64,000 nucleotides of DNA from an uncultured delta proteobacterium (GCA_963771175.1 CAVYSY010000002.1:1-64000); one strand, 5' to 3'; counted from the stretch's first letter, positions 1-62,942 are shown. Notes: a model not told the origin generated them from the letters alone. Numbers and translations are program-made.

Positions 1-252
1 TCCGGCGTGGAACGCCAAGGGCACCTGGTGGGCGTGCACCCCTGGAATCTGTTCCTCGAGCCGTTTCCGGAGAACCAGAGACGGGAGCGGCTCCGCCCCC
101 GGTCCGGGCGGGGCTACGCGCATGCCGTTGTTGAAGAATCGATCAATCTCCTCGTAGAACGCCAGGAGGGCTCCCGAGGCGCCCATCACGACGAGGATCG
201 CGGCGAGGGCGAGACCGACGTACCGATGAAAACGGAGGATGATAGCGCGCAT
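1..252 (-). CDS. PepSY-associated TM helix domain protein (N-terminal part; runs off the window)
   Basis: Manual translation of the minus strand from ATG at 252: MRAIILRFHRYVGLALAAILVVMGASGALLAFYEEIDRFFN..., matching the HRxxGL...SGxxxxFxxEID N-terminus of PepSY_TM proteins. Confidence 0.75.
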   Translation of the reverse strand, partial: MRAIILRFHRYVGLALAAILVVMGASGALLAFYEEIDRFFNNGMRVAPPGPGAEPLPSLVLRKRLEEQIPGVHAHQVPLAFHAG

Positions 253-415
253 GGGACGGGTGGTGGGCGATCGGGGTGATCTTCGATAACTCATTCGGCC
301 GAAGCGCGCTGCCAAAGTGGTTCCGAGGCTGATCCTGTTAACCAAAAAGAGCTTGCATCCCACTCATTTATTTGCCGCCCGGCCACCGTCAAGCCTGCTG
401 TCGTGATGATCGACT

Positions 416-1435
416 TTAAGACCGAGATCTTGCTTCTTCGCGGTCGCTGATTACACCCTCATCCCCCGGACGGCTATTCGGGATGTTGATTCGCTCTCGC
501 TCCACTACGAGGGGTCGGCGGCGTACTTGTTCATGAATAGAGGTGACGTACTCGCCCAACAGCCCGGTGAAAAGCAACTGCAAGCCAAAAAGGAAAAAAA
601 GGCCAACGATGAGAGATGCCATACCGCGTGGCGCGGCATCTGGGCTGAGGATGTATACCACTAGAGTAATCATCGCGTATAAAAAGCAGAGTGCGGCGAG
701 CGCTGCACCGAGAAAGGTGCACAGCCTAAGGGGCACGTTTGTGAAAGAAAAAATGCCATTTAAGGCATGATCGACGAGTTCGAAGAATTTGTGCTTGGGG
801 TGCCCCCGCACCCGTTTCTTCCATACATATGGCACTATAAGACGCTTGAAACCACAAGCTGCAATTATTCCGCGTATGTAAGGATAGTGGTCCTGATGTT
901 CGAGCACCGCCCTGAGGACTTTGCGGTCAATCAGCTGGAACTCTCCAACGTTCCTCGGGATTTCAAAGCCCGAAAGCTTGTTCACTATCGCATAAAACAA
1001 TCGCCGCGCCATTTGCATTAGCGGGTCCTCCTGCCGTTTGGACCGCTCACCCGCGATGACCTCATAGCCCTGCTCCCACAGCTTGACGAATTCGGGAAGC
1101 AGCTCTGGCGGGTCTTGAAGATCAACGGGCAGCATGACGAGAGTAGCGTCGCCGGTGGCGTAGCGAAGCGCATTAAACGTAGAGCGGAATAGACCAAAAT
1201 TTCGCGCATTTATAACTACCTTGACGCAAGGATCGCGCGCAGCCAAACAACGGAGGATCTCAACCGTTCGGTCAGTTGATGCATTGTCAGCGAAGATGTG
1301 CTCTCGCTCATAAGCCGCAAGGGGGTCGTTGAAAAGTGTTCGCACTGCGTCGTAGCAAGCCTGTACATTGCTCTCCTCGTTGAAGCAGGGGGAGACAATA
1401 GAGATCGTTTTCTTTCGCGATACTTCTATGGACAC
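416..1435 (-). CDS. GT2 glycosyltransferase, polyprenol-phosphate glycosyltransferase type (GtrB/ArnC-like)
   Basis: SIVSPCFNEE, DNASTD, RNFG, DLQDPP motifs; two C-terminal TM helices. Confidence 0.9.
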   Translation of the reverse strand: MSIEVSRKKTISIVSPCFNEESNVQACYDAVRTLFNDPLAAYEREHIFADNASTDRTVEILRCLAARDPCVKVVINARNFGLFRSTFNALRYATGDATLVMLPVDLQDPPELLPEFVKLWEQGYEVIAGERSKRQEDPLMQMARRLFYAIVNKLSGFEIPRNVGEFQLIDRKVLRAVLEHQDHYPYIRGIIAACGFKRLIVPYVWKKRVRGHPKHKFFELVDHALNGIFSFTNVPLRLCTFLGAALAALCFLYAMITLVVYILSPDAAPRGMASLIVGLFFLFGLQLLFTGLLGEYVTSIHEQVRRRPLVVERERINIPNSRPGDEGVISDREEARSRS

Positions 1436-2356
1436 GACATCCCCTCACGGCACACCGCGATTCGGTGCCGCCACCACGCAAGTGTGGTCTCAAGACCTTC
1501 TTCAAGCCGACAGCTGGGCAAGACGCCAAGTTCAGTACGCAACCTCGTGACGTCGGCAACAAGCCGTTTCGGTTCCTCGCTTCCGGAATTTCGTGCACCA
1601 ATGGCGAGCAGATCGGGGCGCCCTGAGAAATTTCCGAGAAGCTCGACTATGCGACGGACGGGCACGCTCTCGCCCGACGCAATGTTGATGGTTCCCGCCA
1701 GATCGCTCTCTGTAAGAGCGACAAGTGCCGCAGCCACGTCGGCAACGTAAAGATAGTCAAGTTCCTGTTGGCCAGTCGTTGTTTCCGCCACCTCTCCCGC
1801 AGCCAAAGCGCTGGCGACATCCGATACAAGTCTGCCCAACGGCTCGTGAGGTCCGAAGGTGAAAAAGACGCGTGCCCAGGCAGTGCTCACCCCGGCGTCG
1901 ATCGCCATTCTCTGTATACCCTCCCTCGCGGCGTTCTTTGCCCGCCCATAGTCTGTTCTGGCGTTTGATGGCGTCTCGGTCTCATGTAGGATCTCGTACC
2001 CCCAGTCGTATTCGGCACAACTTCCCACAAAGACCGCCCGGCGTCCTCCCATCCGCAGGAAGGCGCGAAAGAGGTCCATGGTTGCCCTCGCCCATAAGAA
2101 GTTCTCGGGAGCGTCGAAAATCCGCATCTTGTCTTCCCATGCCAGGCAAGATGCAGGAGGTGCGTGGGGCGTATAGCTTGGATCAGGGCTGACAGCGACA
2201 ACGGCGAGAGAAGATCAATCCTGTGCGCGGAGGGCACGGCCAACGGATTGCTTGACGATCGCGAGACTATGTGAATTCAAAACCGCGCTCGCCGAGGGGC
2301 TTCAGGACATGTTGCCCGACAAATCCGGTAGCCCCAGTAACAAGTATCCGTTTCAT
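1426..2356 (-). CDS. NAD-dependent epimerase/reductase (extended SDR), frameshifted near the 5' end
   Basis: ATG at 2356 gives MKRILVTGATGFVGQH (Rossmann); LHLAW in ORF 1887-2243; GSCAEY and YGRAK (YxxxK) in ORF 1426-2127. Confidence 0.85.
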
Positions 2357-2372
2357 CTACGAGAACTGGCGC

Positions 2373-3597
2373 TTAGTCGACTGCAAGATGAGGAATAGCT
2401 GTGACGAAGCGGGTGCCAAACGAACGGACTTTCCCAATCTGGCCGACGATCTCGTCCTTGAGATTCCAGGGGTAGTATAAGGATGAAATTGGGAGGCCTC
2501 TCCAAAATAGCTGAAGGCTCTCGTATGGGGATATGCGTGCCGGGCAAAAACAGCCCCTGTTTATGAGGGCTGAGGTCAACGGTGAAGGGCATGAGCTCGG
2601 GCCCAATGCCACAATAATTTAACAAGGTATTACCTTTTGCGGGTGCCCCGTACCCAACCACACGTTTCCCTTCGCATTTGGCATCGACGAAGAACCGGAG
2701 GATCTCGCACTTTGTTTGTACCACTTGCTCTGCGAACGCTGCATAGGTTGTGAGCTGGTCGAGACCGGCTTGCCGTTCTTTAGCCTTAAGCTTGTGCACG
2801 CGTGCGCCTGCCCGTCGCCTTCCGACATGACAGACATATATTCGCAAAGACCCGCCATGCGTGGGAAGTTCCTCCACGTCGAACACGGTAAGCGCGTGCG
2901 CGGCGAATATCTTTTCAACGGTTAAAAGCGAAAAGTAAGAGAAGTGCTCGTGATAGATTGTGTCGAACTGGTTGCCATCGATCAGCCGAAGAAGATGCGG
3001 AAATTCGAAGGTGGCAATTCCATCCGACTTAAGAAGGATCCGAAAGCCCTCAACGAAGTCATTTATGTCTGGCACGTGGGCGAGAACGTTATTAACGCAG
3101 ATCAGGTCGGCATCATAGCCAGCCACGCGGAGCGCCTCGGCCTTGGCAGCATTAAAAAACGCTACTTCAGTGGGAACTCCTCGGCTTTCCGCCACAGCGG
3201 CCACATTCGCTGCGGGTTCGACTCCGAGTACGGGGATTCCATCTTCAACGAAATTACGCAGCAGATACCCGTCATTACTCCCAATCTCTACGACCCTGCT
3301 CCTCTGATTTATTCCAAACCGCCTACGCATCAGAGCGCAATAGCGCCGTGCATGCTCGAGCCAACTGTCGGAAAAAGATGAAAAATAGAGATAGTGTCCG
3401 AAAATCCGGCTAGGCGTTTCGAACGTGTCGAGTTGTACAAGAAAGCATTGGTCACAGACGTAAGCATGCAGTGGATAATGGGGCTCCATCTCATTAAGAG
3501 AAGCCGCGTCCAACAGAGCGTTAGCCAAGGGGGATTGATTAAGGTTAACAAAGCTAGCATGCAAAGCCGCATCACAAAAGCGACACCGCAGGTCCAT
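2373..3597 (-). CDS. NDP-sugar C-methyltransferase family (zinc-binding N-terminus plus SAM domain); C-terminal frameshift
   Basis: CRFC...CDQCFLVQL, VEIGSNDG, FDTIYHEHFSYFS, HGGSLR, GYGAPAKG; the PWNLKDEI tail lies in the frame ending at 2373. Confidence 0.9.
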
Positions 3598-4056
3598 GTC
3601 TTCACCCCCTCGGTCCTGGAATGCACTCAGCGAACGAGGATGGTCTTTGGTGTGTGGGGTCGCCAAGCAATCCTTCGATTCCCCTCCGATGAGCATCGCG
3701 CAGCGCGCCCGTCTGCTCCGTCCCCAAGCTATCTTCAAGATCGATCAAAAGCTGCTAGCTACCAATCAAGAAATGCCCTTGTTAGAGAGCCCAAGGTAAG
3801 GCGTGCCCTTGGAATTCCCTACGAACGCGGTCTGGTCGCCACGGCTGCGAACAGGGGCACGGGCCATAATTAGTGTCGCTCAGGGACGGCCTCCGCGACA
3901 AGAAATTGTCCCTCGTAATGGGGCAACGTCGTTTTGCAATCCCACGAGTAAACACGCCTCCCGGTTCTCTACCAAACACTTCAGCGTTGAGTTAGCGCGG
4001 TTGGACAGTGCATCCAGATACTGTGCCCGAATAAGACGCCTGCAAAGTCACGAGGA

Positions 4057-4827
4057 TCACCACACTTTCCACTGCGGGCTCCCGCTCGCCCATAGCTCCT
4101 CAAGGAGCGTGCGGTCACGCATCGTATCCATTGGCTGCCAGAACCCGCGGTGTAAATAAGCGCGCAATTGGTCAGTTGCTGCGAGGATTTGCAGCGGGTC
4201 ACGCTCCCAAATGGTGGAATCATCCACAATAAAATCCCCGATTTTTGGGGAGAGCAAAAAAAACCCTCCATTAATCCAGCCTCCCTCGCTCTCGGGCTTC
4301 TCTTGGAAACTCAACACCCGATCCTGATCCAAAGCTAAGGCTCCGAAACGCGCCTTGGGTTGAACTGCGGTAATGGTAGCAAGGCGTCCATGGCTGTGGT
4401 GAAACTTCATCTGCGAGGCAATATCGATATTAGCAACCCCGTCACCATAGGTAAGAGCGAAGACGTTCTCCTTGGCGAGGTGAGGAAGAACGCGCTTCAG
4501 GCGACCTCCAGTTTGAGTTCGTTCTCCAGTGTCGAGCAGTGTAACTCGCCAAGGCTCAGCCATGCTGCGGTGAATATCGAAACGATTGTCTGCGAGATTG
4601 ATCGTGACATCTGACGTATGTAGGAAGTAGTTAGCAAAATATTCCTTAATCATATAACCCTTGTAACCAAGGCAAATTATGAAATCTTTGATCCCGTAAT
4701 GACCATAAATCTTCATAATGTGCCAAAGAATTGGCATACCTCCAATCTCGATCATGGGCTTGGGTTTGACCGATGTCTCTTCGCCAATGCGAGTGCCTAA
4801 TCCACCGGCCAAAATAACGGCTTTCAC
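4057..4827 (-). CDS. rfbF: Glucose-1-phosphate cytidylyltransferase
   Basis: MKAVILAGGLGTRIGEET..KPKPMIEIGG, TGGRLKRV, TYGDGV, GFWQPMDTMRD. Confidence 0.95.
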   Translation of the reverse strand: MKAVILAGGLGTRIGEETSVKPKPMIEIGGMPILWHIMKIYGHYGIKDFIICLGYKGYMIKEYFANYFLHTSDVTINLADNRFDIHRSMAEPWRVTLLDTGERTQTGGRLKRVLPHLAKENVFALTYGDGVANIDIASQMKFHHSHGRLATITAVQPKARFGALALDQDRVLSFQEKPESEGGWINGGFFLLSPKIGDFIVDDSTIWERDPLQILAATDQLRAYLHRGFWQPMDTMRDRTLLEELWASGSPQWKVW

Positions 4828-5154
4828 AAGCGTAACTCAGAGCATCGCCCGTTGGTAGGGTAACTACGCGCGTCCATTTCAGCGTCCCTGCGGCCCCAAA
4901 ACTCGTGAGTTGCTACCCGCTCACCCAATATCCATGGCCTCACTCCCCCACAATACGAACGCGTGATGATTTATTCCAGCTTGAGCGTGCGCGTGCTTCA
5001 ACAAGCTGGTCAATGGGAAAAGGAAGGTTCCCGCAACCGACAAGGAGAAACGGAAGTTCGGGGAGGAAGCTCAATCAGTCAAGCGCGATTTCCTAACCCT
5101 CTTCAGCCGGCGCTTTTGAGCATGTCACCTTTTGTCGGCGTTGGGCACCACGTC

Positions 5155-6217
5155 CTAGCGAGGAGTCCAAAACAGACCGCGGTCAATCTGCGCGGTCCGC
5201 TGCAGGTACTGCAGCTGTCTTAGCCGGGTAAACGCTCTGAACTCGTAGGTGCTCTGCGAAAACTCAATACGCTGAAACAGCCGTCGCAACTCCGGGCCCC
5301 TGCCGCGCCGTCCAACGGCTCTTGAATCCGGGCAACCGCGAGGCAATCTTGTCAAATGAAACCCGATAACTCCGGTTATCCGGACTCGGCGGCCCCACAG
5401 TCACCTCGCAGCCGGGAAACGCCTGGGCGACGATCGCCGCAATCTCGCGCACCCGATAGTTTTCCGCCGTAACGCCAACGTTAAATATTTGACCGTTCAC
5501 GGCATCTATCGGCGCATCGAGCGTGAGCCGCATCGCTTCGCAGATGTCCTCGATGTGAGCAATGGGGCGCCACGGACTGCCGTCACTGACCATTGCGATT
5601 TCCTGCCTTGTCCAGGCAAGCGCACACAGATCATTCAACACAACATCGAAGCGCATGCGTGGGGAGGGACCGTAAGCGGTGGCGTTTCGCAAGAACGTGA
5701 CGCAGAAGTCTGTGCTTGCCATTGAGCGCAAGTCGTCCTCCACCATGACCTTGCATTTCGCATAAGCGGTCTGAGGATTGGGGGGCGAGGTCTCGTCGAC
5801 GAATTCTTCGCTGCCCACACCGTAGACACTACAGGAGGACGCATAGATAAACCTTCGCACACCCGCTTCGCGCGCCGCCCTTGCGATGCGTACTGATCCT
5901 TGGTGGTTTATCTCATAAGTAATTTCCGGATGATTTTGCCCCAGAGGATCGTTCGAGAGTTCCGCTAGATGAACGACCGCGTCCAGCCCTTCAAAATCCG
6001 GCCGTGTTACCGTTCGCAGATCCTTGTAAAGCGTGCGGGGCGCCATCCGCAGGCCGAGCGGGTCGAGATAAAGCGTGCCGTCGCAATAGTAGCCCGTATC
6101 CAGGCCGATCACATCATGACCGCACTCGGCGAGCCATGGAGCAAGGCGTGCACCAATGTAACCCTCGGTGCCGGTGACAAGTACCTTCAGCCTGCTTGTT
6201 CCCTCTCTGATCTTCAT
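5155..6217 (-). CDS. NAD-dependent epimerase/dehydratase (SDR); C-terminal frameshift
   Basis: VLVTGTEGYIG, HLAELSNDP, ASSCSVYG, YAKCK, LRNATAYG, SDGSPWRP; the tail continues in ORF 5155-5355. Confidence 0.9.
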
Positions 6218-6508
6218 AGAGTTACTCTTGATCAGGCCTCGGCGTACCAAGTATCCCCGACTTGACAAATTGGGCCCTCAGCATATGCAGAAAGAGAAGC
6301 ACCTCGTTAATTACGTTCGGACGGAATGATTTATAGTTCCTCAGAGTAGGATTGCTGATCTCCGGCGCGAGTGGCAGGAGCACATAGCTGCGCACTAGAG
6401 TTAAGCCAAGAGTCCCAGGTTGCCCGGCCCACTGCCAAGGGACTCGAGCCCTATTCCAGCGCGCGCAAATTTTTTTGCGTCTAGTTATTTATAGCACTAA
6501 ATGTAGCT

Positions 6509-7549
6509 GTGGGCCAAAAGCGAACGATCCGCGGGGTGCTTGAGGCCGGGCTCTCACACATGCCCGGTCTCGTGCAGATCGCTGCGGGGCCAATCTTTTG
6601 TCCATTCTACCACTGCGTTACTGACGAGCCAGGCGATCATGTCAAGCGCCTGTTTCCTATCCGTAATCCGCGAACGTTTCGGGATGATCTGGAATTTCTC
6701 GCCCATTCGTTCGCGCCATTGTCGTTAAGCGATCTGGTCAATCACGCGCGCGAGGGCCGTCCACTTCCGCCTCGGGCAATGTTCCTCTCATTTGATGATG
6801 GTTTGCGTGAAGTCGCTGATGAAATCGCGCCACTCTGCAAGCGAGTAGGCGTCCCAGCAACATTCTTTTTGAACTCAGCCTCGCTCGACAATCGGTTTCT
6901 CTGCTTTCGCCACAAGGCGAGCCTACTCATAGAAAACCTTTCCAATACTCATCCAAGTTTGATCACAGAAGTCGCGCGCTTGATGGGACTTCCTGACGGT
7001 GTTCAACCTGAAATCGTCATTCAGCGAGTTGCCGACGCTCGCGTACGCGACACTCACACTCTCGATTTGATAGCTCGCGTAGTTGAATTGGACTTCGAAA
7101 CGTTTCTGCACCAAAGGCAACCGTATCTTACCACCAAAGAGGTTCAAACACTTTTGGTTCAGGGGTTCGAAATAGGCGCGCACAGCGTGGATCACCCTCA
7201 CTACAGCGACCTGCCCCTTCCACAACAGGTTTGCCAAACAGTGGACTGCGCTAGGGACTTGAAAGCCCGCTTTGGGCTCGAACGCATCTCCTTCGCCTTT
7301 CCATTTACGTCCGACGGCGTCGAACAACCTTTCTTCGATGAGGTATTAGGACGAGAAATTGTCGATTTGATTTTTTGTGTCGGCGCTATGCCCGCCAATG
7401 AAACTCGCGTTCTGCAGAGAGCGTGGATGGAAAGTGATGCTCACCTACCAGTGCAGCGCATCATGCGAGATTTCCATACCAAAGAGTTGAGCGGACGTCT
7501 TCTTAGTGGCATAAAAAATTTCTTCGAACGCCGTTGGAGAGTGCGATGA
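6509..7549 (+). CDS. Polysaccharide deacetylase (CE4/NodB-like)
   Basis: FYH, LSFDDG, EIGAHSVDHP, FAFPF motifs. Confidence 0.9.
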   Translation: MGQKRTIRGVLEAGLSHMPGLVQIAAGPIFCPFYHCVTDEPGDHVKRLFPIRNPRTFRDDLEFLAHSFAPLSLSDLVNHAREGRPLPPRAMFLSFDDGLREVADEIAPLCKRVGVPATFFLNSASLDNRFLCFRHKASLLIENLSNTHPSLITEVARLMGLPDGVQPEIVIQRVADARVRDTHTLDLIARVVELDFETFLHQRQPYLTTKEVQTLLVQGFEIGAHSVDHPHYSDLPLPQQVCQTVDCARDLKARFGLERISFAFPFTSDGVEQPFFDEVLGREIVDLIFCVGAMPANETRVLQRAWMESDAHLPVQRIMRDFHTKELSGRLLSGIKNFFERRWRVR

Positions 7550-8313
7550 GGGGTAATCCCTTAGTTTCTATTCTAATCCCATGCTATAATTCTGTAGATT
7601 ATGTTGATCAGTGCATAAGAAGCGCCTTGGATCAAACATATTCAAACGTTGAAGTTATTGTAATTGATGACGGCTCGACCGACGGAAGTAAAAAGGTCAT
7701 TGAATCTTATGGAAATCACATTCGCGCAGAATTCTCGTCCAACCGCGGTCCAAACGCAGCGCGAAATTACCTGCTTCAACACGCTCGAGGCAGTTGGCTG
7801 CAATACCTTGATGCCGACGATTACCTGTTGCCGGATAAAGTCAAAAAACATATGGCCGTCATTGACCAAACCCCAGACATCGATGTGGTTTACTCTCCGG
7901 TTACGCTCCTCTTTGAATCCGGCGAAGAACATACCGTCGACATCGAACAAGTTGATGATCACATGGCAAACTTCGTGCTCTGGGGGGCTTTTGCCACCCA
8001 TTCTATGATGCTACGAGCGGAAGCGGTACGGGCGATCGGAGGTTGGAAAGAAGACCAACCTTGCTGCCAGGAACACGAGTTGTTGCTTCGTTTGCTTCGG
8101 GCCGGGGATAAGTTTGCTTGTTTGAATGAGAACGTTGGAGCCATCTATCGCCAACATGGTTGTGGCACGGTTTCTAAGAAAAATCTTGAGTTGGTAATGC
8201 GCATCCGAATGAATCTCACAGATGCACTGGAGTGCTATTTGAAGCAACGAGGCGAGTTAAACACGCTGCGACAAACATGTATTGCTCGAGCACGATTCGA
8301 GAGTGCGCGATGA
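7546..8313 (+). CDS. GT2 glycosyltransferase (may continue to ~8508 across a frameshift)
   Basis: VSILIPCYN, IDDGSTD, ARN, LDADD. Confidence 0.85.
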   Translation: MRGNPLVSILIPCYNSVDYVDQCIRSALDQTYSNVEVIVIDDGSTDGSKKVIESYGNHIRAEFSSNRGPNAARNYLLQHARGSWLQYLDADDYLLPDKVKKHMAVIDQTPDIDVVYSPVTLLFESGEEHTVDIEQVDDHMANFVLWGAFATHSMMLRAEAVRAIGGWKEDQPCCQEHELLLRLLRAGDKFACLNENVGAIYRQHGCGTVSKKNLELVMRIRMNLTDALECYLKQRGELNTLRQTCIARARFESAR

Positions 8314-12616: not shown

Positions 12617-13648
12617 ATGACACGGCTCGACAAAGCGGACGCGGTATTCGAAGGCGGAGGGGTGAAGGGAATCGGACTGGTCGGCGCCGTCGAGTACATG
12701 GAAGAGGCCGGCCTGCGGCTCCAGAACGTCGTGGGCACCTCGGCCGGAGCAATCGTCGCGGCCCTGGTGGCGGCTGGGTACTCGGCTGCGGAGCTGCGCG
12801 CCATCATGGAGAGCCTCGACTACCGACGCTTCCAGGACATGAGCAAGCTGGACCGGCTCCCGGTGCTCGGACCGGCGCTGAGCGTGCTGTACGAGAAGGG
12901 CCTCTACGAGGGGAACTACTTCGAGAGCTGGCTGCGGGAGCTGCTGGCCGAGGCCCCTCGCAAGGTCCGCACCTTCCGCGACCTGCACATGGACGGCGAG
13001 TCGCCCGGGTCGAAGTACTTCTACAAGTTGCAGGTCATCGCCGCCGACCTCACCCGGCGCAAGCAGCTCGTCCTGCCCTGGGACATCCGCGACTACGGGT
13101 ACGATCCCGAGGAGCTCGACGTGGCCAGGGCGGTGCGGATGAGCATGAGCATTCCGTTCTTCTTCGAGCCCGTGCAGGTCCAGGATACGCGCGGCCAGAC
13201 CTGCTTCATCGTGGACGGAGGCGTGCTCAGCAACTTCCCCGTGGACATCCTCGATGACGGCAAGGCCAACCCGCCCTGGCCCACCTTCGGCTTCAAGCTG
13301 GTGGACGGAGTCCAGAGCGATGGCAGGGAGGAGGAGCGGCCGAACCGAATCCAGGGCCCCATCTCCCTGCTCCGGGCGCTGTTCTCCACGATGCTGGAGG
13401 CGCACGACGCGCGCTACATCCGGCAGAAGAACTTCGACCGCACCATCGCCATCCCCACGCTGGGAGTGGGGACCACGGACTTCGGCATCCGCAGCGAGCA
13501 GACCCAGGCCCTCCACCGCTCGGGCTGGGAGGCCGCCGAGCGGTTCCTCCAGAAATGGGACTTCCACGCCTGGATCGAGAAGCACCGCCTGCCCGAGGTA
13601 CTCGGCCCGAAGGCCCCTGGCCCCGAGTCGATGTCCGCGGTGATGTGA
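12617..13648 (+). CDS. Patatin-like phospholipase
   Basis: GGGVKG, GTSAG (GxSxG) and DGG motifs. Confidence 0.95.
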   Translation: MTRLDKADAVFEGGGVKGIGLVGAVEYMEEAGLRLQNVVGTSAGAIVAALVAAGYSAAELRAIMESLDYRRFQDMSKLDRLPVLGPALSVLYEKGLYEGNYFESWLRELLAEAPRKVRTFRDLHMDGESPGSKYFYKLQVIAADLTRRKQLVLPWDIRDYGYDPEELDVARAVRMSMSIPFFFEPVQVQDTRGQTCFIVDGGVLSNFPVDILDDGKANPPWPTFGFKLVDGVQSDGREEERPNRIQGPISLLRALFSTMLEAHDARYIRQKNFDRTIAIPTLGVGTTDFGIRSEQTQALHRSGWEAAERFLQKWDFHAWIEKHRLPEVLGPKAPGPESMSAVM

Positions 13649-15551: not shown

Positions 15552-15800
15552 GCGCTGTCCCTTGTCGCTCTTCCCTACCACGCCCCAGTGGCGTCGACGG
15601 AAGCCCGATGCGCTCGCGTCATACCACGGCAGGAGTCCCCTTCGAGTGGAGAACTCACGAGGTCATGCCTCTCCGTAGCGGCGACGACGCGAGTTCGAGC
15701 CATGCGGGGTTCAGACGACTCGTAGGGGGCGAGGTGTTGGAAGAGTCCTTTGACAGCGGAGATCACATGGCTTCCGCGCTGATGTCAGCGACGTAAACTA

Positions 15801-16610
15801 TCAGAAGAGCTTCTTCACGATCTGCCGCGCAAGTTGTAACTCCTCCACACCGACACTGCCCCGTTCGGGAAAGAGTTCCTTCAAGACCAGCAAGAAGGCT
15901 CTCTCTTGCCGGGAGTCAACATCAATATCATGGGCGTCCTTCCACCATGGATAGGCTTCCAACTCGCCCTTCTCATTGTGAATCCAGCACGACAGAAGCT
16001 TGTTCGGCTTCTCCCCCAAAAGAACCAGCGAGTCATTGACGCGGCGGACGGCCTTCCAAACAGAGGTCTTCTCTTTGCGCAGAAGCTGGAAGTAGAGCAT
16101 CTGCTCGGCTATCGCACAAACATCGTCTGACGCTATTCCAGGGTAGCCAACAACTGCTTCTGCCCCGCTGGCATCGAGAATCCCGTTGGCAAGTTGCGCG
16201 CACCCACCGCTCCAACAAGCCGACAGCATGACTGCTCGGACACGCATCTTTTTCAGGGGGGAGAAGGCGTTCGCGATTTCGGTCGTGCTCGCCGGAACTC
16301 CGCCATCTTCCAACCGCAGATACGGTCCATCGGAGGAGCCGTGAGAGTTGAGGTGGACGAAGCGAACATCCATAGGCTCGACCAAGTCACCTCCCTGTGT
16401 CCTTCGCGAACGCTCCCAAGAGTTCTGTTCGCCTGCCTTCGTGAGCACATGGCGCAATGCCCCGACGGTTTCGATTCGCTCATGGAAAACACGAGTCTCT
16501 GGAGAGAACGCTCGCGCAAATGACTGGAACAGATCGAGCTGGGTCCGCCGCGCATCCCAGGGCACGATATGCCCATCGAGATTCGTCTCCAACAACAGAA
16601 TGTCATTCAT
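15801..16610 (-). CDS. CHAT/caspase-like (clan CD) cysteine peptidase domain protein
   Basis: AAGGGG RBS before ATG 16610; FVHLNSHG and VMLSACWSG His/Cys dyad motifs; AVVGY. Confidence 0.75.
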   Translation of the reverse strand: MNDILLLETNLDGHIVPWDARRTQLDLFQSFARAFSPETRVFHERIETVGALRHVLTKAGEQNSWERSRRTQGGDLVEPMDVRFVHLNSHGSSDGPYLRLEDGGVPASTTEIANAFSPLKKMRVRAVMLSACWSGGCAQLANGILDASGAEAVVGYPGIASDDVCAIAEQMLYFQLLRKEKTSVWKAVRRVNDSLVLLGEKPNKLLSCWIHNEKGELEAYPWWKDAHDIDVDSRQERAFLLVLKELFPERGSVGVEELQLARQIVKKLF

Positions 16611-16660
16611 CAAAATCCCCTTACAAGTCAATCAACACCCATAAATCCGTGAGCCTTGAT

Positions 16661-18400
16661 CCCACCATATTCGTGACGACAGGCTCAAGACATGCATGAG
16701 GGCTGAAGCCGAGGGCATGGGCTTGCGATTTCGGACGCAGGACAGACGACCCCCGCCCGGGGTCGCGGGTCGCGAGCAGGAAGAGCTGGAGAGGGTGCTA
16801 CGGAAGATTCGACGGGAGGGAAGGGATTGCCGCCGATTGGCTACGAGACGTGGGCCGTGCTCAGCGAGCCCAGCTTCGTCCACAGCTTCTGCCAGAGGCT
16901 GGCCGACTCCCGGGCAATCACCAGCACGACCCTCCTGGCGTGCAACAGTACCCGTGCCGCCACCTTGAGTACCCGCTCGCGGACGCGGCGCAGCCCCCAG
17001 CCCTCGCCCGTGGCCTGCTCCATCAGCACGCGCGCGGCGTGCACCAGGTTGTAGGCCAGGGCGTTGAGCAGCAGGCGCACCTCGTTGTTGGCGAAGGCGT
17101 CGATTGACACCGAGCGCTGCACGGGCGGACGCCCCCGGTAGTTGGACTTGGGCCGTTTGGACGAGGAGAGCGCCGGGGCCAGCACGTCCATCAGCTCGCC
17201 GAAGTGACCTTCGGCCGTGCCGCGCTCGCGGTAGTGCTCCAGCAGCTTCTCGGCCGGCATCTGCTCGGCCGAAAAGCTCGTCACCAGCCAGAAGGCGTGC
17301 GGGAAGAGCTCGCCCTCCCTCTCCAACAGCACCAGCACCACGCGCCGTGCACGGCTCCAGCCCTGCGCCTGGTACTCCCATTCGTACAGGAAGGTGCCCG
17401 GCTCCCCCGTCGGCACTCCCGAGTGGAAGAAGCGTGGCAGGGCTGCCTCCTGCTTGAGCACCGAGGTGTTGCGCACGCGCGCCACATAGGGCGTGCCTCG
17501 CTCCTCCAGCTTCCCAAGCAGCTTCTCCTCGGGAAACCCCGCGTCCAAGCGCACCGCCGCCACTTCGCATATCTCCTTCTCCACTCGCCCCAGCAACTCC
17601 TCGATGAACTCCAGCGCCCCGTTGGCGCTGTGCACGTTGCCCTCGCGCAACCTCACGTCCAGCAGGTCGCCCGTCTCCGCGATGCTGGCCACCAGCGGGT
17701 GGTACATGCGCACCCCGTAGTGTCCGTTGTACGCGCTGCCTTCCTGGTGCCCATGCACCTCCACCGGCAACCCGTCCACGTCCACCGTCACCTGCCTCAG
17801 CTTCTGGCCCTTGGGCTGCTGCGCCCTCAGCCTCCGGCCCGTCTGCCACACCAGCGCCTCGTGCAGCACCTTCCGGTTTTCCTCTCGCGCCAGCATGCTC
17901 ACAAGCCGCGACAAGGTGGGCTGCGAGGCCAGTCCCTCCGGCCCTCCTTCTTCCCGCCGCAGCGGCGCGGTGCTCTTCCTGTCCGACACCGCCAGCCTCA
18001 GCACCGCATCCCGCCTCAGTGCATCCGCGTCGTCGCTGTCTTTCCACCCCTGCGCCAACAGCAAGAGGGGCGTACGCACCAGTTCCCGCAACGAGTGCGT
18101 TATCCGCTTCTCGTCTCGCGTGTCCGTCAAACTCTCCCCCAACCAGCGCGTCAGCCCCAACCGCTCGTCCACCTCCCTCAACAGCACCGCCCCTGCCTCC
18201 GCCGTCAACCGCTCCGCTCTCGCCTCCAGCTTCACGGAGCCGTTGAATTCCAGCCCGAAGTCGTTGAGGATTTCACCCATGACGCGCCTCCTGCCGTTTG
18301 GTGGTGGTTGTCTGAACAACACCCCTCTACCACTCGGGAGGTCAGGCGCGTCACCCTCCTTTTCCGGTCATCCTCCTGCCCCTCTCGTGAATAAGGCGGG
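16661..18400 (-). mobile_element. IS1380-family insertion sequence
   Basis: Imperfect terminal IRs CCCACCATATTCGTGA (from 16661) and CCCGCCTTATTCACGA (reverse complement ending at 18400), 12/16 match; TGAT-containing flanks on both sides suggest a target duplication. Confidence 0.85.
16841..18280 (-). CDS. IS1380-family DDE transposase (intact ORF)
   Basis: LTAEAG, LASQPTLSRL, VDVDG..HGHQEG.AYNGHY, RLDAGF, YRERGTAE. Confidence 0.93.
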   Translation of the reverse strand: MGEILNDFGLEFNGSVKLEARAERLTAEAGAVLLREVDERLGLTRWLGESLTDTRDEKRITHSLRELVRTPLLLLAQGWKDSDDADALRRDAVLRLAVSDRKSTAPLRREEGGPEGLASQPTLSRLVSMLAREENRKVLHEALVWQTGRRLRAQQPKGQKLRQVTVDVDGLPVEVHGHQEGSAYNGHYGVRMYHPLVASIAETGDLLDVRLREGNVHSANGALEFIEELLGRVEKEICEVAAVRLDAGFPEEKLLGKLEERGTPYVARVRNTSVLKQEAALPRFFHSGVPTGEPGTFLYEWEYQAQGWSRARRVVLVLLEREGELFPHAFWLVTSFSAEQMPAEKLLEHYRERGTAEGHFGELMDVLAPALSSSKRPKSNYRGRPPVQRSVSIDAFANNEVRLLLNALAYNLVHAARVLMEQATGEGWGLRRVRERVLKVAARVLLHARRVVLVIARESASLWQKLWTKLGSLSTAHVS

Positions 18401-18436
18401 ATGATGATTCTCTTCGACCAATCAAATCTTCCCATC

Positions 18437-18567
18437 AGAGGACATTAAACTGGGACAAGCAGGAACAACGTTCAGCGCCTACCCCGCATGCAGGCAAGCC
18501 CAATGTAATGGGCCAGGACGCTTCCCACCCACCGAGCTTCGAGGGAGACAGTTCAACAGTCTCTCTC
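18437..18567 (+). repeat. Left arm of a ~120-bp diverged inverted repeat, ending in a hairpin
   Basis: Manual alignment to the reverse complement of 19545-19662: about 91/122 columns identical; shared GGACAAGC, GCCTACCC, GGCAAGC, CAATGTAATGG, GAGGGA, CAGTTCAACA. Confidence 0.85.
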
Positions 18568-18569
18568 AT

Positions 18570-19250
18570 GTTTTCACACTACCGCCATCCGGACGCGTAT
18601 GCGTAGACTTCGAACTCGCGGATAGTGCTTGCAGTTGAATTACCATCAACCAAGTGCAGAGCCAGCTTAAGAACTCTGGGGGTGGCGACTGCACGCCCCC
18701 TGTTATTTCGAAAAACCAATCCAGCGTATTAATGTAGAGAAAGATCCGTGCGAAAGGCCATTGCGGATACGACGCACATAATCGCTATTCAAGAGCTTTC
18801 GCACCATGCCGGCACAGGGGTGGCGCGCCTTCGCGGCCTCATTGATTAGCCGGCTGAGCGGCCCTTCCCTCATGAAGACCTAACGATATATAAAGCCGCA
18901 TCACCAGCTGACCCCTGGTACGGTCATTCTGATTTTTACAGGCACTGGAAGATCAAGCAACTCAGCGTAGGGCGGAACGGGCCCTCCTCCTCCATCACGC
19001 CGATCCAGCGAGGTAGCGAGGGCGAACCAGAACACGCCGTTAGCCAGTTGCTCTGAAATCTTGCTTGGCAACGAGAACCCCGTGAGTTCCTGCAGCAGTT
19101 CAGTTCATTAGAACCTGAGCTGATTTGCGAAGCGTGCTCAAGGAGATCGCGGCACTCGTTGAACTGTCGAGAGAAGCTGGATTATCCAGAGCCTCTCGCG
19201 AGTAGACAGCTCATCCGTCAGCCCCTACGTTTCCCGATCAACATCGTCAC
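18570..19250 (-). pseudogene. Fragmented gene with a HEPN-like RNxxxH motif
   Basis: Minus-strand pieces LLQELTGFSLPSKISEQLANGVFWFALATSLD... and MREGPLSRLINEAAKARHPCAGMVRKLLNSDYVRRIRNGLSHG (motif at 18765-18748) lie in different frames; boundaries approximate. Confidence 0.35.
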
Positions 19251-19538
19251 GTTCAGGCTAGGCGGAGGCCCCTCATTTGGCCGACCGAATGTGGCATAAA
19301 ACTTTCGAAGAGTATCATCTCAAGATGTTCAGGTGAAAAGCTCATGCCCCTGAATCGTCTTCTGTTCGAAAGTAGTGTCAGGCTCGCCCCCGGGGGCATA
19401 TCCCCTGGGCTGGAACCTGGAACCGCCGGGTCATCGTGAAGCACTTCGCGTTTAGAGCTACCACTTTAAGATGTAGCAGCAGCTCCCCCTGGAAGGGATT
19501 ATAGGAGGCATCTGAGGGCAGGAAACTCTCAGAGGTCA

Positions 19539-19662
19539 GAGGGTTGTTGAACTGTCCCTCGGAGTCCGGCCGGCAGGATAATCCCTTGTCCATTACATTG
19601 AGCTTGCCCGCCTGCTGGGTAGGCACGAATGTTGTGCCGCTTGTCCTATTTCAACACCCTCT
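19539..19662 (-). repeat. Right arm of the ~120-bp diverged inverted repeat
   Basis: Reverse complement aligns with 18437-18558; hairpin GAGGG-ACAGTTCAACAA-CCCTC. Confidence 0.85.
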
Positions 19663-19826
19663 CAGAGTTGAAATTAGCGCTTCCCCCTATTGATTGGCTC
19701 TCCCGCACTTCGTGTGGTTCAGGGGCGGGGGGCGGGCAAGCGGGCCAGCCTCACGCATACAGACGTCCGCAGGCACCCAGAATTCACAAAAACTTCGGGA
19801 GAAGCCTATTGATTCCCGGGCACTTC

Positions 19827-20934
19827 TTACCGCCGTAGTGCCGCCTCGTAGGCCGCGAGCGTCTGCTCCGCGCAGCGCGCCCAGGTGAACCGGGCCGCCT
19901 GCTTCCGGCCCGCCTCCGCCCAGCGCCGCCGCTCCGCGTCCGAGCGCATCAGCCGGTCCATCGCCTCCGCCAGCCCCTCGGCGTCGTCCGGCCGCACCGC
20001 CGGAGCCGCCTCGCCGCACACCTCCGGCGTGCGCCCCCGTCGTGGACACGATGGCCGGCGTCCCCAGCCGCATGGCCTCCAGCGGCGGCAGTCCGAATCC
20101 CTCGTACTTCGAGGGGAACACGAACACCGCCGCCCGCCGCATCAGCTCGAAGAAGACGGGCTCGGACTGGTAGCCGAGCGGCCGGATGTCATGGCCCTCG
20201 GAGCGCATGCGCGCGACGCGGGACTCCACCGCCCCCGAGCCGAACCAGCTCTGCCCCACCATCACCAGCGAGACCGGCCGACCCCGCGCCTTCAGCCGCT
20301 CGAGCGCGTCCAGCACCAGGCTCACGTTCTTCCGCACGTCCAGCGAGCCCGCGTACAGGACGAACCGCTGGGGCAGCGCCAGCGCGCGCAGGAACTCCTC
20401 GGTGGTGGCGTCCGGCACATGGCCGTCCACGTGGTCCACCCCGTTGTACGACCACCGACACCTTGTCCGCCGCCTCGGGGTGGCGCGCCAGGAGATCATC
20501 CCGGGTGCACTCGCTCACGCAGACGATGCGGTCGGCCACCTGCACGCTGCGGGCGAGCCACAGGCGGAACTGCCAGCGGTAGGCCCGGGAGACCGTCTCG
20601 GGCATCAGCAGGGGGATGAGGTCGTGGACGGTGAGCGACGTAGGGCTTGCCGGGGGTGCGCACCAGCGGGAGGTTGAAGTTGCCCAGCGCGTGGTACAGC
20701 AGCGCCTGCGAGCGCCGCAGCGTCTGGGGCAGCCGACCCAGCACGTAGGCCGTGCGCCCCATGTCGGCCGCGAGGGTCCTCGCCGGAAACCCGTGCCCCC
20801 AGCCGCTCCAGGCGCACGCCCCGGGCCTGGAGGGCGGAGGCCAGACACCGGGTGTAGAGACCGATGCCCGTGGTGGGCTCGTCCCACAGACTCGCATCGA
20901 AAGCGACAGGACCGATGGACACGGCGCGCCTCAT
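19827..20934 (-). CDS. GT4 glycosyltransferase (frameshifted)
   Basis: TGIGLYT, TVHDLIP, GSLDVRKN, FPSKYEGFGLPPLEAM. Confidence 0.85.
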
Positions 20935-20965
20935 AGCATGCCGCTGTGATAGGCAGGGTCCCCCT

Positions 20966-23222
20966 ATGGCGGTCCATCAGCTGATTCCGAGCTTCGTGGC
21001 GGGCGACGCCACCGGACAGGCGGCGCTCCACCTGCAACTGCTGCTGCGCCGGCTGGGCCACTTCGGCGAGCTGTACGCGGGCGAGGTGGGGCCGGGCCTC
21101 GAGGTCCCTCGCGCACCCGGCCTCGGCGCTGCGCCCGGCCCCGGACGACCTGGTGCTCTACCACCACGGCATCGCCTCGCCGCTGAGCAGCCGGCTGATG
21201 CACCTGCCCTGCCGCCGCGGGCGTCGTCTTCCACAACATCAGCCCCGCGCGCTTCTACCGGGGCACCCCGCTGGCCGAGGCGCTCGTCACGGGCCGGGCC
21301 CAGCTCGCCGCCATGGCGCCCTTCGTGGACGTGGCCATCGGCGTGTCGGACTTCAACTGCGCCGAGCTGCGCGAGGCCGGCTACCGCAACGTGCACACCG
21401 TGCCGCTCTTCGTCGAGCCCGAGCGCTTCTCCGAGGCGAACGCGGACAAGGCGATGCTGCGAACGCGCTGTCGGGCCCCGGCCCGGTGGTGCTCAGCGGT
21501 GAGCCGGGTGGTGCCGCACAAGCGCTTCGAGGACCTGCTCGCGCTGCACGCGGAGCTGCTGCGCCTGCGGCCCGACGCGCGCCTGCTGGTGGTGGGCGGC
21601 TACGAGCCGGGCAGCCGCTACTTCAAGTCGCTCCAGCGCACGGCGCGCGGGCTGTCCGGGGTGAACTTCCTCGGGCGGCTGAACCACGCGGAGCTGGTGG
21701 CGGCGTACCGCTGCGGCGAACGTCTTCGTCTCCATGAGCGAGCACGAGGGCTTCGGCGTGCCGCTGCGTCGAGGCCATGGCCGCGGAGGTGCCGGTGCTG
21801 GCCTACGCGGCGGCGGCGGTGCCCGAGACGCTCGGGGGCGCGGGCATCGCCTTCGACCAGAAGCGCTTCGCCTTCCTCGCCGAGCTGGTGGTGGAGCTGT
21901 GCGAGGACCTGTCGCTGCGCGAGCGCGTGCTCGCGGGCCAGGCGCGGCGGCTGAAGGACTTCTCCGCCGAGGCGAGCGCAGAGGGCCCTCGCGAAGGCGC
22001 TGGGCGAGAGCAAGCGCCCGAAGCGCCGCGCGCCGCCGGCGACGAAGAAGCCCCGGGTGGGCGTCGTGGTGCAGCGCTACGGCGAGGTGACGGGCGGCGC
22101 CGAGCGCCACGCGCAGCAGGTGGTGGAGCAGCTCGCGCCGCACTGGGACCTGACCGTGCTCACCACGCTGCGCGAAGGACCACCTCACCTGGGAGAACGT
22201 CTTCCCGCCGGGCGAGGAGCAGGACGCGAACGTGGAGGGCGTGCAGGTGCTGCGCTTCCCGGTGACGCGCGTGCGCAACATCCGCCCCTTCAACGCGCTG
22301 TCCAGCAGGTCTTCGACAAGCCCAACGAGCGGCTGCGCGAGGAGCACTGGGTGGCCGAGCAGGGCCCGCTGGTGCCCGGCCTGCTGGAGCACCTGGACGC
22401 GCACGGGGCGGACTACGACGGCTTCGTCTTCTTCACCTACCTGTACGCGCCGACGGTGTGGGGCGTGCCGATGGTGGCGGACCGCGCGCTGCTCGTCCCC
22501 ACCGCGCACGACGAGCCGCCCATCCGCTTCGGCGTGTACGCGGACGTCTTCGAGCGGCCCCGGCGCCCTGCTGTGCAACACGCCCGAGGAGGTGGAGCTC
22601 ATCGGCCGCGTACTACCCGGACCACGCGCCGGCGCGGGTGGTGGGCGTGGGGGTGGACGTGCCGGCGAAGGTGGACCCGACGCGCTTCCGCGAGAAGTAC
22701 GGCGTGCGCAACCCCTACCTGCTCTACGTGGGGCGGCTGGAGGCCGGCAAGGGCATCCCCGAGCTGCTCGCGCACCACCGGGAGCTGCGCTCGCGCTTCC
22801 ACGACGCGCCGGACCTGGTGCTGGCCGGCGAGGCGCACATGGAGCTGCGCGGCGAGGGCGTGCGCTACGTGGGCCGCATCGACGAGCAGGACAAGTACGA
22901 CGCGCTGGCCGGGGCGCTGGCGGTGGTGGTGCCCTCGCGCTTCGAGAGCCTCTCGCTGCTGACGCTGGAGGCCTTCGCCTCGGGCACGCCGGTGCTGGTC
23001 AACGGGCACTCGGAGGTGCTGGTGGGCCAGGTGGAGCGCAGCCAGGCGGGCAAGACGTACACGGACCTGGACTCGTTCATCGAGGGCCTGCGCGTGGTGG
23101 GCGAGCAGCGGAGCGCCATGAGCCGGCGCGCGCGCGCCTACGCCGCGAAGTACACGTGGCCCAAGGTGGTGGACGCCTACCGGGAAGAGATGGAACGCAT
23201 CGTCAGGGAGAAGAGCCGATGA
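20966..23222 (+). CDS. GT4 glycosyltransferase, probably two GT-B modules in one protein (frameshifted)
   Basis: First module: SRVVPHKR, SEHEGFGVP; second module: GGAERH, YVGRLEAGKG, PSRFESLSLLTLEA. Confidence 0.8.
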
Positions 23223-34728: not shown

Positions 34729-37578
<2,850 letters not shown>

Positions 37579-49632: not shown

Positions 49633-50874
49633 ATGCGAATGAAGACTCCCGTGAAGCTGGGGCTGCTCACGAGCCTCTACCTCTCCCAGGGCCTGCCCTT
49701 CGGCTTCTTCACCCAGGCCCTGCCGGTGCTGCTGCGCAAGCAGGGCCTGTCGCTGCCGGCCATCGGTCTGGCGAACCTGCTCGCGCTGCCGTGGGCGCTC
49801 AAGTTCCTCTGGGCGCCGCTGATGGACCGATACGGCTCGGAGCGGCTGGGGCGGCGGCGCGGCTACATCCTCCCGCTGCAGTTCCTCTCGGCGGCGCTGC
49901 TCCTGGGGCTGGCCCTCCCCGAGGGGACAGTGAGCGTGCCGGCCCTTCTGGTGGCGGTGCTGCTCGTCAACCTGCTGGCCGCCACGCAGGACGTGGCCAC
50001 GGACGGGCTCGCGGTGGACCTGCTCGAGTCCGAGGAGCTGCGGCTGGGGCAACGGCGTGCAGGTGGCCGGCTACCGGGTGGGGATGATTCTGGGCGGCGG
50101 GTTGATGCTCATCATCTTCGACGCGCTGGGCTGGCGCCCCACCCTGCTGAGCCTGGGCGCGCTGCTGCTCGTGGCCACGGTGCCAGTGGCGCTCTTCCGC
50201 GAGCCGCCCTCCCCCGCCCCCCGGAGCGAGAGCGTGAACATGGCCCACTGGCTCCGCGAGTCCCTGCTGTACTGGGTGCGCCGCCCCGGCGCGGGCGCGT
50301 GGTTCACCCTGCTCGTCCTCTTCAAGGCGGGCGAGCACCTGCGCCACGGGCATGCTGCGCACCTTCCTCGTCGACGTCGGGGCTGGGCCTGTCCGAGGTG
50401 GGCTGGATGCTCGGGTTCGTGGGCTTCACCACGGGGCTCGTCGGCGCGCTGCTCGGAGGGGCGCTCGTCCACCGGCTGGGGCGACGGCGGGCGCTGCTCG
50501 TCTTCGGCATCCTGCAGGCCGGGGCGGTGCTCCTCTACGCGATGGCCGCGCGCGGGGCCTCCTTGCCGGTGCTCGCGCTCGTCTGCGGCGTGGAGCACCT
50601 GACGAGCGGCATGGCCACCGCCGCCCTCTTCACGGTGATGATGGAGATGTGCCGCCCGGAGCACGCCGCCACCGACTACACGGTGCAGGCCTCGCTCGTC
50701 GTGGTGGCCACCGGAGCGGCCGCGGCCGTGAGTGGATTCAGCGCCCAGGCGCTCGGCTACGCGTGGCACTTCACGCTCTCGGCGGTCGTCTGCGCCGTGG
50801 CCGTGGCCTGGGTGGCATTCACCTTCCATCCGCCCCGGACGCTCGTGTCCAGGGGACAACCGGAGGTGTCGTGA
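49633..50874 (+). CDS. MFS transporter, AmpG/PAT family (compensating frameshifts)
   Basis: YLSQGLPFGF, LPWALKFLWAPLMD, ATQDVATDG, ATDYTVQAS. Confidence 0.88.
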   Translation: MRMKTPVKLGLLTSLYLSQGLPFGFFTQALPVLLRKQGLSLPAIGLANLLALPWALKFLWAPLMDRYGSERLGRRRGYILPLQFLSAALLLGLALPEGTVSVPALLVAVLLVNLLAATQDVATDGLAVDLLESEELRLGQRRAGGRLPGGDDSGRRVDAHHLRRAGLAPHPAEPGRAAARGHGASGALPRAALPRPPEREREHGPLAPRVPAVLGAPPRRGRVVHPARPLQGGRAPAPRACCAPSSSTSGLGLSEVGWMLGFVGFTTGLVGALLGGALVHRLGRRRALLVFGILQAGAVLLYAMAARGASLPVLALVCGVEHLTSGMATAALFTVMMEMCRPEHAATDYTVQASLVVVATGAAAAVSGFSAQALGYAWHFTLSAVVCAVAVAWVAFTFHPPRTLVSRGQPEVS

Positions 50875-51369
50875 TGACCATCGCCGTCTATGCCGGCAGC
50901 TTCGACCCGGTGACCGCTGGCCACCTCTCCGTCATCCGTCAGGCCGCGCGCCTCTTCGGCCACGTGGTGGTGGTGGTGGCCATCAACCCCGAGAAGCGCA
51001 CCCTCCTCACCGTGGCCGAGCGCGTGGAGTTGCTGCGCGACGTGGTGGCGCTCCACCCCAACGTCACCGTGGCCAGCACGGAGGGGCTCATCGTGGACTA
51101 CGCGCGAGCCATCGGCGCGAGCGTGCTGCTGCGCGGGAGTGCGCGGCGCCACGGATGCCCAGTTCGAGACGACGCTGGCCCAGGCCAACCGCGCGCTCGC
51201 CCCGGACCTCTCCACCCTGTTCCTCCCCGCCGAGGCCCACCTCGCCGAGGTGAGCAGCAGCCGACTCAAGGAGCGGCTGGAGCGCGGCGAGGATGTTTCG
51301 GACTTCTGCCCACCGGCGGTCGCGGCGAAGCTGCGGCAACGACTGTCCCCCTCCTTTCGGAGCCCGTGA
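50874..51369 (+). CDS. coaD: Pantetheine-phosphate adenylyltransferase (CoaD-like; one frameshift)
   Basis: AVYAGSFDPVTAGH, NPEK, LLRG.RG..D..FE, VSSS. Confidence 0.8.
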
Positions 51370-62807: not shown

Positions 62808-62942
62808 ATCTTCTCCCCACCACGAGCCAAGCTCCGAAGCTACCACGCCAGCCCCACCTCGGCGACCGTTGGATTGCGCTTGCCCCGCGATGTTTGATAC
62901 CCACCCGCCTCTGTCACGGTAGCGCTCCTCCGAGGTTCCATC

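Follow-up and report, generated by a model that had tools for sequence, protein, structure and literature searches.

The window analysed here is a 64,000-nt stretch of an uncultured delta proteobacterium (CAVYSY010000002.1:1-64000), and within it two diverged inverted repeats of roughly 120 nt, which we call the arms, bracket the segment 18437-19662. Our tentative reading, the one we favour while holding it with less than even confidence, is that this segment is the relic of a repeat-bracketed, non-autonomous single-gene cassette that was acquired horizontally and of which every part is now dead. Among the proposals of the first-pass annotation, that of two ends of a non-autonomous cassette comes close to this explanation. 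Among the evidence for it, the interior matches a family of proteins, each arm has terminal inverted repeats of its own, and arms and interior share a base composition foreign to most of the window.

The interior of the segment

The first clue was a 58-aa open reading frame (ORF) on the minus strand, 18703-18879, which reads LLNSDYVRRIRNGLSHGSF and gave a chance-level Pfam match to a HEPN family (E 0.23). One codon position is steadily GC-poor over 18700-19600, as it is in the nearby CHAT-like gene described below. When the minus frame 19611-18703 was translated with its 12 stops written as X, the resulting read-through protein (P0004) matched 36 proteins, which are 189-271 aa in length; the best E-value is 1.1e-34, and identities of 41-58% extend over 35-62% of the query. 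At the nucleotide level, blastn aligns 18586-19345 with the whole coding sequence of relatives in 26 of 31 loci at 58-64% identity, 25 of them at E <1e-10. These matches, together with tblastn, delimit on the minus strand, at 18566-19343, a pseudogene of an uncharacterised family of ~245 aa with a HEPN-like RNxLSHGSF motif. The segment is not non-coding DNA. Its description as ORF-poor is literally correct, the longest stop-to-stop frame being 90 aa, but the poverty conceals a gene; and the effector gene that had been suspected between the arms is there, in the form of an effector-like gene that is dead.

Mapped onto the window by tblastn, family residues about 9-81 fall at 19316-19101 (frame -2), about 79-140 at 19101-18916 (frame -1), about 140-152 at 18916-18878 (frame -3), about 153-205 from there down to 18703 (frame -1), and about 218-244 at about 18680-18599 (frame -3). 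The natural stop, 18566-18568, overlaps the inner end of the left repeat unit, and the right unit ends ~200 nt upstream of the former gene start. The spacer between them (19344-19544, with no strand assigned) has a GC content of 0.567, no Pfam match and no homology to the 31 loci.

How dead is the gene? In-frame stops interrupt well-aligned parts at 19220 (TGA), 19184 (TAA) and 18705 (TAA), two more lie at the expected N-terminus (19331 and 19322), and the start codon is gone. Among the 47 residues invariant in the family, 38 are kept in the window copy and 9 are changed; of the 41 nearly invariant residues that it covers, 35 are kept and 6 changed. The interior is marked as a dead minus-strand gene by these stops, by the absence of a start and by the invariant residues that have changed. 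The frame changes, at least four, are not reliable evidence of decay, because secA and the adjacent glycosyltransferase gene are frame-disrupted as well.

Anatomy of the arms

Searched against the window with blastn, 18380-19720 yields a match between 18437-18558 and 19662-19545, in inverted orientation, at 74.6% identity over 122 columns (E 8.6e-17). Aligned with MAFFT, the left arm (18437-18558, plus strand, GC 0.566) and the right arm (19545-19662, minus strand relative to the left, GC 0.551) are identical in 91 of 122 columns; the remaining columns hold 18 transitions, 9 transversions (a ratio of 2:1) and 4 gaps, which stem from indels of 1, 1 and 2 nt. The diverged inverted repeat of ~75% identity had been reported with the same count, which is reproduced exactly, and a repeat finder recovers a 70-nt core and 24-nt outer ends. 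The conserved blocks picked out within it are present but carry no signal beyond the 75% identity: the identical runs (12, 11, 8, 8, 7 and shorter) fit random scatter: in 10,000 permutations a longest run of this length has P = 0.61, and five runs of at least 7 nt have P = 0.28.

The two ends of each arm are complementary to one another. In the left arm CATCAGAGGACATTAAACTG (from 18433) pairs with CAGTTCAACAGTCTCTCTCATG (to 18570), and in the right arm AGAGGGTTGTTGAA (19538-19551) pairs with TTCAACACCCTCT (19650-19662). The end-complementarity scores, 10 and 11, are each equalled by one in 2000 dinucleotide shuffles (P = 0.0005 per arm), and values as high occur in just 13 of 954 tiles of the window. 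Delimited in this way, the full units lie at about 18433-18570 (plus) and about 19534-19666 (minus) and measure about 133-138 bp, with terminal inverted repeats of 14-20 bp; this is the size of a miniature inverted-repeat transposable element (MITE; <~300 bp), and they have no coding capacity. Each arm is a separate ~130-bp non-coding unit with terminal inverted repeats of its own, an anatomy like that of MITEs.

The ends also vary together. A variant specific to each arm is common to both of its ends, GAC...GTC in the left and GGT...ACC in the right, and with the variants matched in this way all pairs of the closing stem are intact in both arms: there are 11 pairs, none broken, and two adjacent pairs are altered on both sides. 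The fold of the whole right arm uses a closing stem of 13 bp. Each arm had been described as ending on its inner side in a hairpin with the same loop and a different stem. The shared loop, CAGTTCAACA, is the inner terminal inverted repeat of each unit, because it pairs with the outer end of the same arm. As for the hairpins themselves, the left one, which begins at the stop codon of the pseudogene, is significant (-14.1 kcal/mol, z = -3.1 to -3.6, equalled by none of 200 shuffles), but the right one is no better than chance (-7.6 kcal/mol, z = -0.5, 56 of 200 shuffles folding as well).

The arms had been judged non-coding, which the alignment bears out: mismatches are spread over all codon phases (14/8/5), the indels disrupt every frame, and no frame has a match in Pfam. 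An ORF that runs across the right arm and the spacer on the minus strand (19378-19650) has no homologue in the protein databases searched.

Copies of the arms

A 19-mer common to both arms has its two exact matches there and one further match in the window, with three mismatches, at 62866. The latter, inside a GGDEF gene, we rejected as a third arm, because the similarity does not extend (local alignment P = 0.084). Apart from the arms, the arm end motif has a single, chance-expected match in the window. A covariance model built from the two arms (R1) recovers just these two in the window with filters on or off, and Smith-Waterman comparison with shuffled sequences detects no additional arm in the right flank or close to the CHAT-like gene (P 0.11-0.84). 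Also set aside was a 12-mer, GACAGTTCAACG, at 19157-19168 on the minus strand, which matches the inner end motif at 11 of 12 positions. It lies in the pseudogene's codons for an RQFN conserved in the family, and as each arm offers ~110 possible 12-mers, we judge the match a coincidence. Neither the arms nor the segment have blastn matches in plasmid and phage collections, and the opening parts of the abstracts of papers on MITEs in Myxococcus mention no such repeat.

Decay, and a possible origin as terminal repeats or a duplication

Are the arms conserved? They differ at 27 substitutions in 118 ungapped columns, or ~0.11 per lineage, against ~0.07-0.09 per nt for the dead gene by a rough, approximate conversion from its changes at invariant residues. 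The arms are therefore no better conserved than the pseudogene and, as far as two sequences can show, appear mostly not to have been under purifying selection. A diversity-generating retroelement, which would leave A-specific differences between the arms, was considered and rejected: by eye the differences are of mixed type, and Pfam scans of the ORFs found no reverse transcriptase domain.

A divergence of the arms that matches the decay of the gene is what one would expect if the arms had been identical when the unit died. It is one of the points that speak for a different origin, in which the arms are not independent units but the long terminal inverted repeats of a single non-autonomous transposon, or an inverted duplication of the gene's flank produced by an accident of replication or repair. 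Such an origin would also suit a repeat with just two known copies, placed exactly around one gene, and with no target duplication around the individual arms. It does not predict, however, that the inner end of each arm should be complementary to its own outer end, at P = 0.0005 in either case, or that the variants specific to an arm should recur at both of its ends. We regard this origin as unlikely, if the strongest of the rivals to the cassette of two small repeats.

Structured elements and recombination sites as alternatives

Are the arms instead functional, as structured RNAs or cis-regulatory elements? Hairpins in untranslated regions that stabilise, terminate or insulate the transcripts of a toxic gene would be an example. 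The closing stem, with its two adjacent pairs changed on both sides, argues for some such role, as does the strong left inner hairpin that starts at the stop codon of the gene. In neutral simulations in which the right arm was the ancestor, all 11 closing-stem pairs were kept in both copies in 1.6% of 20,000 runs (P = 0.016). This survival hints at a pairing constraint, or at arms that were already distinct, individually intact copies before they came to flank the gene. The other tests speak against a structured element. Whole-arm folds reach z-scores of only -1.4 to -2.0, with 9-16 of 200 shuffles folding as well. RNAalifold finds three 'compensatory' pairs between the two arms, but three or more arise in 33-35% of 400 neutral simulations, so that covariation does not rise above the neutral null. 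A scan of 17500-20500 with Rfam 15 at E <= 10 returned two chance-level matches (E 1.6 and E 8), neither in an arm. Moreover, the arms are inverted, so that a transcript of the gene would carry opposite strands of the two copies; they are no better conserved than the dead gene, they are absent beside the intact relatives at 31 loci, and the right inner hairpin stands at chance level. The first-pass suggestion of an undescribed structured RNA accordingly loses most of its ground, and we rate a functional element of this kind as quite improbable.

Recombination sites would account for other features, whether as folded sites similar to attC, in an integron-type cassette, or as the sites of crossover in an invertible segment. 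The core sites of attC, R'' and R', follow the pattern RYYYAAC...GTTRRRY. Like attC sites, the arms are ~125-135 nt long with an imperfect internal dyad symmetry, their paired ends contain GTT and AAC in a GTTnAAC that resembles the core sites, and the stop codon of the gene abuts one of them, as in gene cassettes. The resemblance fails in detail. Read on either strand, the arm ends are GTTGAAC, ATTAAAC or GTTGAAA at the 5' side and GTTCAAC at the 3' side, and the central base is of the wrong class for the attC consensus. Unlike the sites of a cassette array, the two arms are inverted and not direct, and no third site follows the CHAT-like gene. No integrase or invertase domain was detected by Pfam among the 66 window ORFs of our own gene calls. 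The earlier observation that no recombinase lies between the arms thus stands, and extends to their surroundings, since Pfam finds no recombinase domain between or beside them; the invertible segment proposed along with it finds nothing in its support. We consider recombination sites of either type very improbable.

A last possibility, to which we assign the smallest chance of all, is that the ~130-nt unit is a folded site of a new kind, in DNA or RNA, to which an enzyme of the host or of an element is recruited to move or regulate single defence-type genes. It would form a cassette boundary analogous to attC but unrelated to it, and the intact closing stem would be the trace of its constraint.

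The family of the passenger protein

What did the cassette carry? Twenty relatives of the passenger align as a compact family of ~245 aa with 47 invariant columns, among them LLNxDYxRxxRNxLSHGSF. R214, N215, L217, S218, H219 and G220 are invariant in all 20 sequences, and the window copy reads RNGLSHG. Because the invariant R-N-x-L-S-H fits the Rx4-6H signature, we call the family HEPN-like, as a putative member of the HEPN superfamily. The passenger resembles the pEK499_p136 branch of HEPN proteins (PF18736) in this motif, in a mostly helical fold and in weak matches to the Pfam model, which are found for the window fragment (E 0.23, the match noted above), for one of the 20 members (E 0.084) and for a distant member, P0122 (E 0.009). 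It differs in that all of these lie below the curated cut-off and in that Foldseek, run with a confident AlphaFold model of the family (predicted local distance difference test score 85.6), returns no match at E <= 0.001 in PDB or BFVD. An Atlas feature score of 0.79 for the HEPN pointer serves as a lead only. No Pfam family reaches its cut-off in the 20 members, and searches of NCBIfam, PADLOC, PHROGs and PDB sequences gave nothing relevant.

The family is rare and phylogenetically scattered. A profile search of 1.84 billion representative proteins yielded 84 clusters at E <= 0.001, of which 23 reach E <= 1e-30, and the 31 loci span Acidobacteriota, Planctomycetota, Verrucomicrobiota, several proteobacterial classes, Bacteroidales, Dehalococcoidia and one archaeal metagenome-assembled genome (MAG). 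Pfam annotation of 148 neighbouring ORFs shows no conserved partner gene. The neighbours include housekeeping genes, a HindIII-type restriction-modification pair, a DNA methylase, ParE, an MNT/HEPN pair, a RES-domain protein, HNH nucleases and an IS66 transposase. A partnership with CHAT was rejected: none of the 31 loci has a CHAT homologue. With unrelated neighbours across many phyla and no CHAT, the gene appears to travel alone.

Inverted repeats of any kind flank the gene in just 2 of the 28 loci with enough flank, a 29-nt repeat in L012 and a 39-nt repeat in L008. The former is a GC-rich palindrome, at 5730-5758 and 6820-6848, that lies 230 nt upstream and 19 nt downstream of an intact family member; its spacing is much like that of the window arms and its sequence is unrelated. 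In L008, a contig of an Opitutaceae MAG, an intact member (551-1303) sits between identical direct repeats of at least 150 nt (60-215 and 1676-1830, 1616 bp apart), and the 39-nt inverted repeat is a partial inverted copy at 1569-1607 within this longer direct-repeat structure. The L008 repeats could be a duplication, a cassette boundary or an effect of assembly at the start of the contig.

A low-GC island and its neighbours

GC content sets the segment apart. The arms have a GC of 0.55-0.57, the spacer 0.57, the pseudogene 0.54 and the CHAT-like gene 0.56, against 0.726 for the glycosyltransferase gene on the right, 0.669 for the insertion sequence (IS) on the left and 0.70 for 21000-64000, where only 3 of 702 tiles of 122 nt have a GC as low as 0.57. 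By this measure the arms are part of an imported low-GC island (about 15600-19700) rather than repeats native to this genome. No significant direct repeats mark the edges of the island (P 0.05-0.46), and the window has no tRNA genes that could provide an attachment site. CCTATTGATT occurs twice between the right arm and the stop codon of the glycosyltransferase gene, at 19686-19695 and 19805-19814, 119 nt apart, and CCAATCAA at 18418 is its partial inverse. This pattern is not significant (P 0.05-0.13), yet it might be the trace of an insertion site.

To the left of the cassette, the CHAT-like (caspase-type) gene at 15801-16610 on the minus strand is intact, encodes 269 aa and has a GC of 0.563; the pseudogene lies upstream of it on this strand. 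Its Pfam CHAT match (E 3.3e-4) is below the curated cut-off. The protein is very rare: only three homologues were found in a collection of 5.8 billion clusters, at 67, 61 and 42% identity, two of which have a precomputed PF12770 assignment; PADLOC and NCBIfam give no match, and the PHROG match is at chance level only. Putative His and Cys motifs (SHG, SAC) can be picked out by eye.

Between this gene and the left arm, outside the repeat-flanked unit, stands an IS of 1741 bp (16661-18401, minus strand). Its transposase ORF, 16841-18322 on the minus strand, matches DDE_Tnp_1_4 (E 6e-84, Pfam), its inverted ends lie at about 16659-16683 and 18381-18402, and a 4-bp direct repeat, TGAT, is read from its flanks at 16657-16660 and 18402-18405. 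The IS, with its TGAT target duplication, was inserted later, 31 nt outside the left arm. Once it is removed, the left arm lies 81 nt upstream of the ATG of the CHAT-like gene (16610), in agreement with the earlier statement that the arm had sat just upstream of that gene before the IS arrived.

On the right, the high-GC boundary of the island is formed by a GT4 glycosyltransferase gene (19827-21061, minus strand), whose Glycos_transf_1 and Glyco_transf_4 matches in Pfam fall on two overlapping frames, so that its frame is disrupted.

A possible history of the cassette

How might the segment have arisen? In a donor of lower GC, two copies of a small repeat would have come to bracket the gene in opposite orientation, either through two separate insertions or as the two ends of a repeat-bracketed composite that a transposase encoded elsewhere mobilised in trans. 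Horizontal transfer may then have brought the block into this genome, together with the CHAT-like gene or next to it. Function would subsequently have been lost and all parts would have drifted, the arms presumably doing nothing now, and the IS would have landed beside the cassette at a later time. Past mobility and this order of events are what we infer from the present arrangement.

Comparable parts are known. Bacteria have miniature inverted-repeat elements of ~100-150 bp, such as the Correia elements of Neisseria and the enterobacterial ERIC/IRU sequences. Like these, the arms are ~130 bp long and non-coding, have terminal inverted repeats of 14-20 bp, can fold on themselves, and lie between genes, directly after a stop codon. 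Unlike them, the arms are known in two decayed copies only, have no known target duplication or parent IS, and show no similarity to the plasmid and phage collections or to Rfam. Composite units bracketed by miniature elements are known as well, in the form of integron mobilisation units flanked by two MITE copies. The segment shares with these a passenger gene set between two inverted copies of a small repeat with no transposase inside; it differs in that the passenger is dead, that no target duplication flanks the whole, and that the unit is not found at the 31 loci.

Several observations weigh against the cassette interpretation. Just two copies of the arm are known, and the other 62 kb of the window have none. 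The flanks of the arms and of the unit as a whole reveal no consistent target-site duplication; the most that recurs is GAG, next to the right unit, and a short duplication could have been lost to decay of ~10% per site. An autonomous element whose ends match those of the arms is not known, and the window's sole IS has unrelated ends by blastn. None of the 31 loci with relatives of the gene contains the arms (blastn E < 0.1; covariance model E <= 10), and no flanking inverted repeat of ~120 nt exists in the 28 loci with enough flank. The cassette therefore has no second instance, and the repeat-gene-repeat arrangement is peculiar to this cassette lineage. The intact closing stems, rarely preserved in the neutral simulations described above, sit uneasily with strictly neutral decay in place. 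Lastly, frame switches occur even in secA of this assembly, which makes the count of frameshifts in the pseudogene unreliable.

Other features of the window

The secA gene (34987-37425, minus strand) consists of true SecA blocks alternating with out-of-frame stretches, with several frame switches, and the genes for ribosomal protein S2, RRF and a sigma-54 activator are represented by short fragments. The frame breaks across the window reflect either many indel errors in the assembly or widespread decay, and a frameshift read from the assembly alone should not be trusted here.

A second low-GC stretch occupies 1-8000 (GC 0.54; GC at third codon positions 0.54-0.64). It holds sugar-modification genes, namely those for a GT2 glycosyltransferase, two epimerases, a C-methyltransferase, a nucleotidyl transferase and a polysaccharide deacetylase, and looks like an imported block for polysaccharide synthesis. 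At 12617-13648 on the plus strand lies a gene for a patatin-like phospholipase, which gives a match to the PADLOC models of phospholipase effectors (E 9e-11). Two further conflict-type genes of the window are located at 50352-52115 (plus) and 53958-55100 (minus); the conflict-type products are a cytidylyltransferase fused to a metallo-beta-lactamase domain, with a match to the anti-Pycsar protein Apyc1 below cut-off, and a protein with a Tox-REase-2 domain.

Implications

A segment that had presented itself as a candidate for a new RNA or a new switch is largely explained by the decay of a gene and of two repeats, which saves the effort of following it up as such. Should the arms turn out to exist in many copies, they would constitute a new family of small repeats from a donor lineage of lower GC. 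The gene family, found at 31 loci in many phyla among unrelated neighbours, appears to move on its own. It deserves to be flagged for its invariant HEPN-like motif, for having no solved or predicted structural relative, and for its frequent position beside restriction or toxin-antitoxin genes. An intact member of the family would make a fair candidate for an RNase-type gene that acts alone, in defence or as a toxin.

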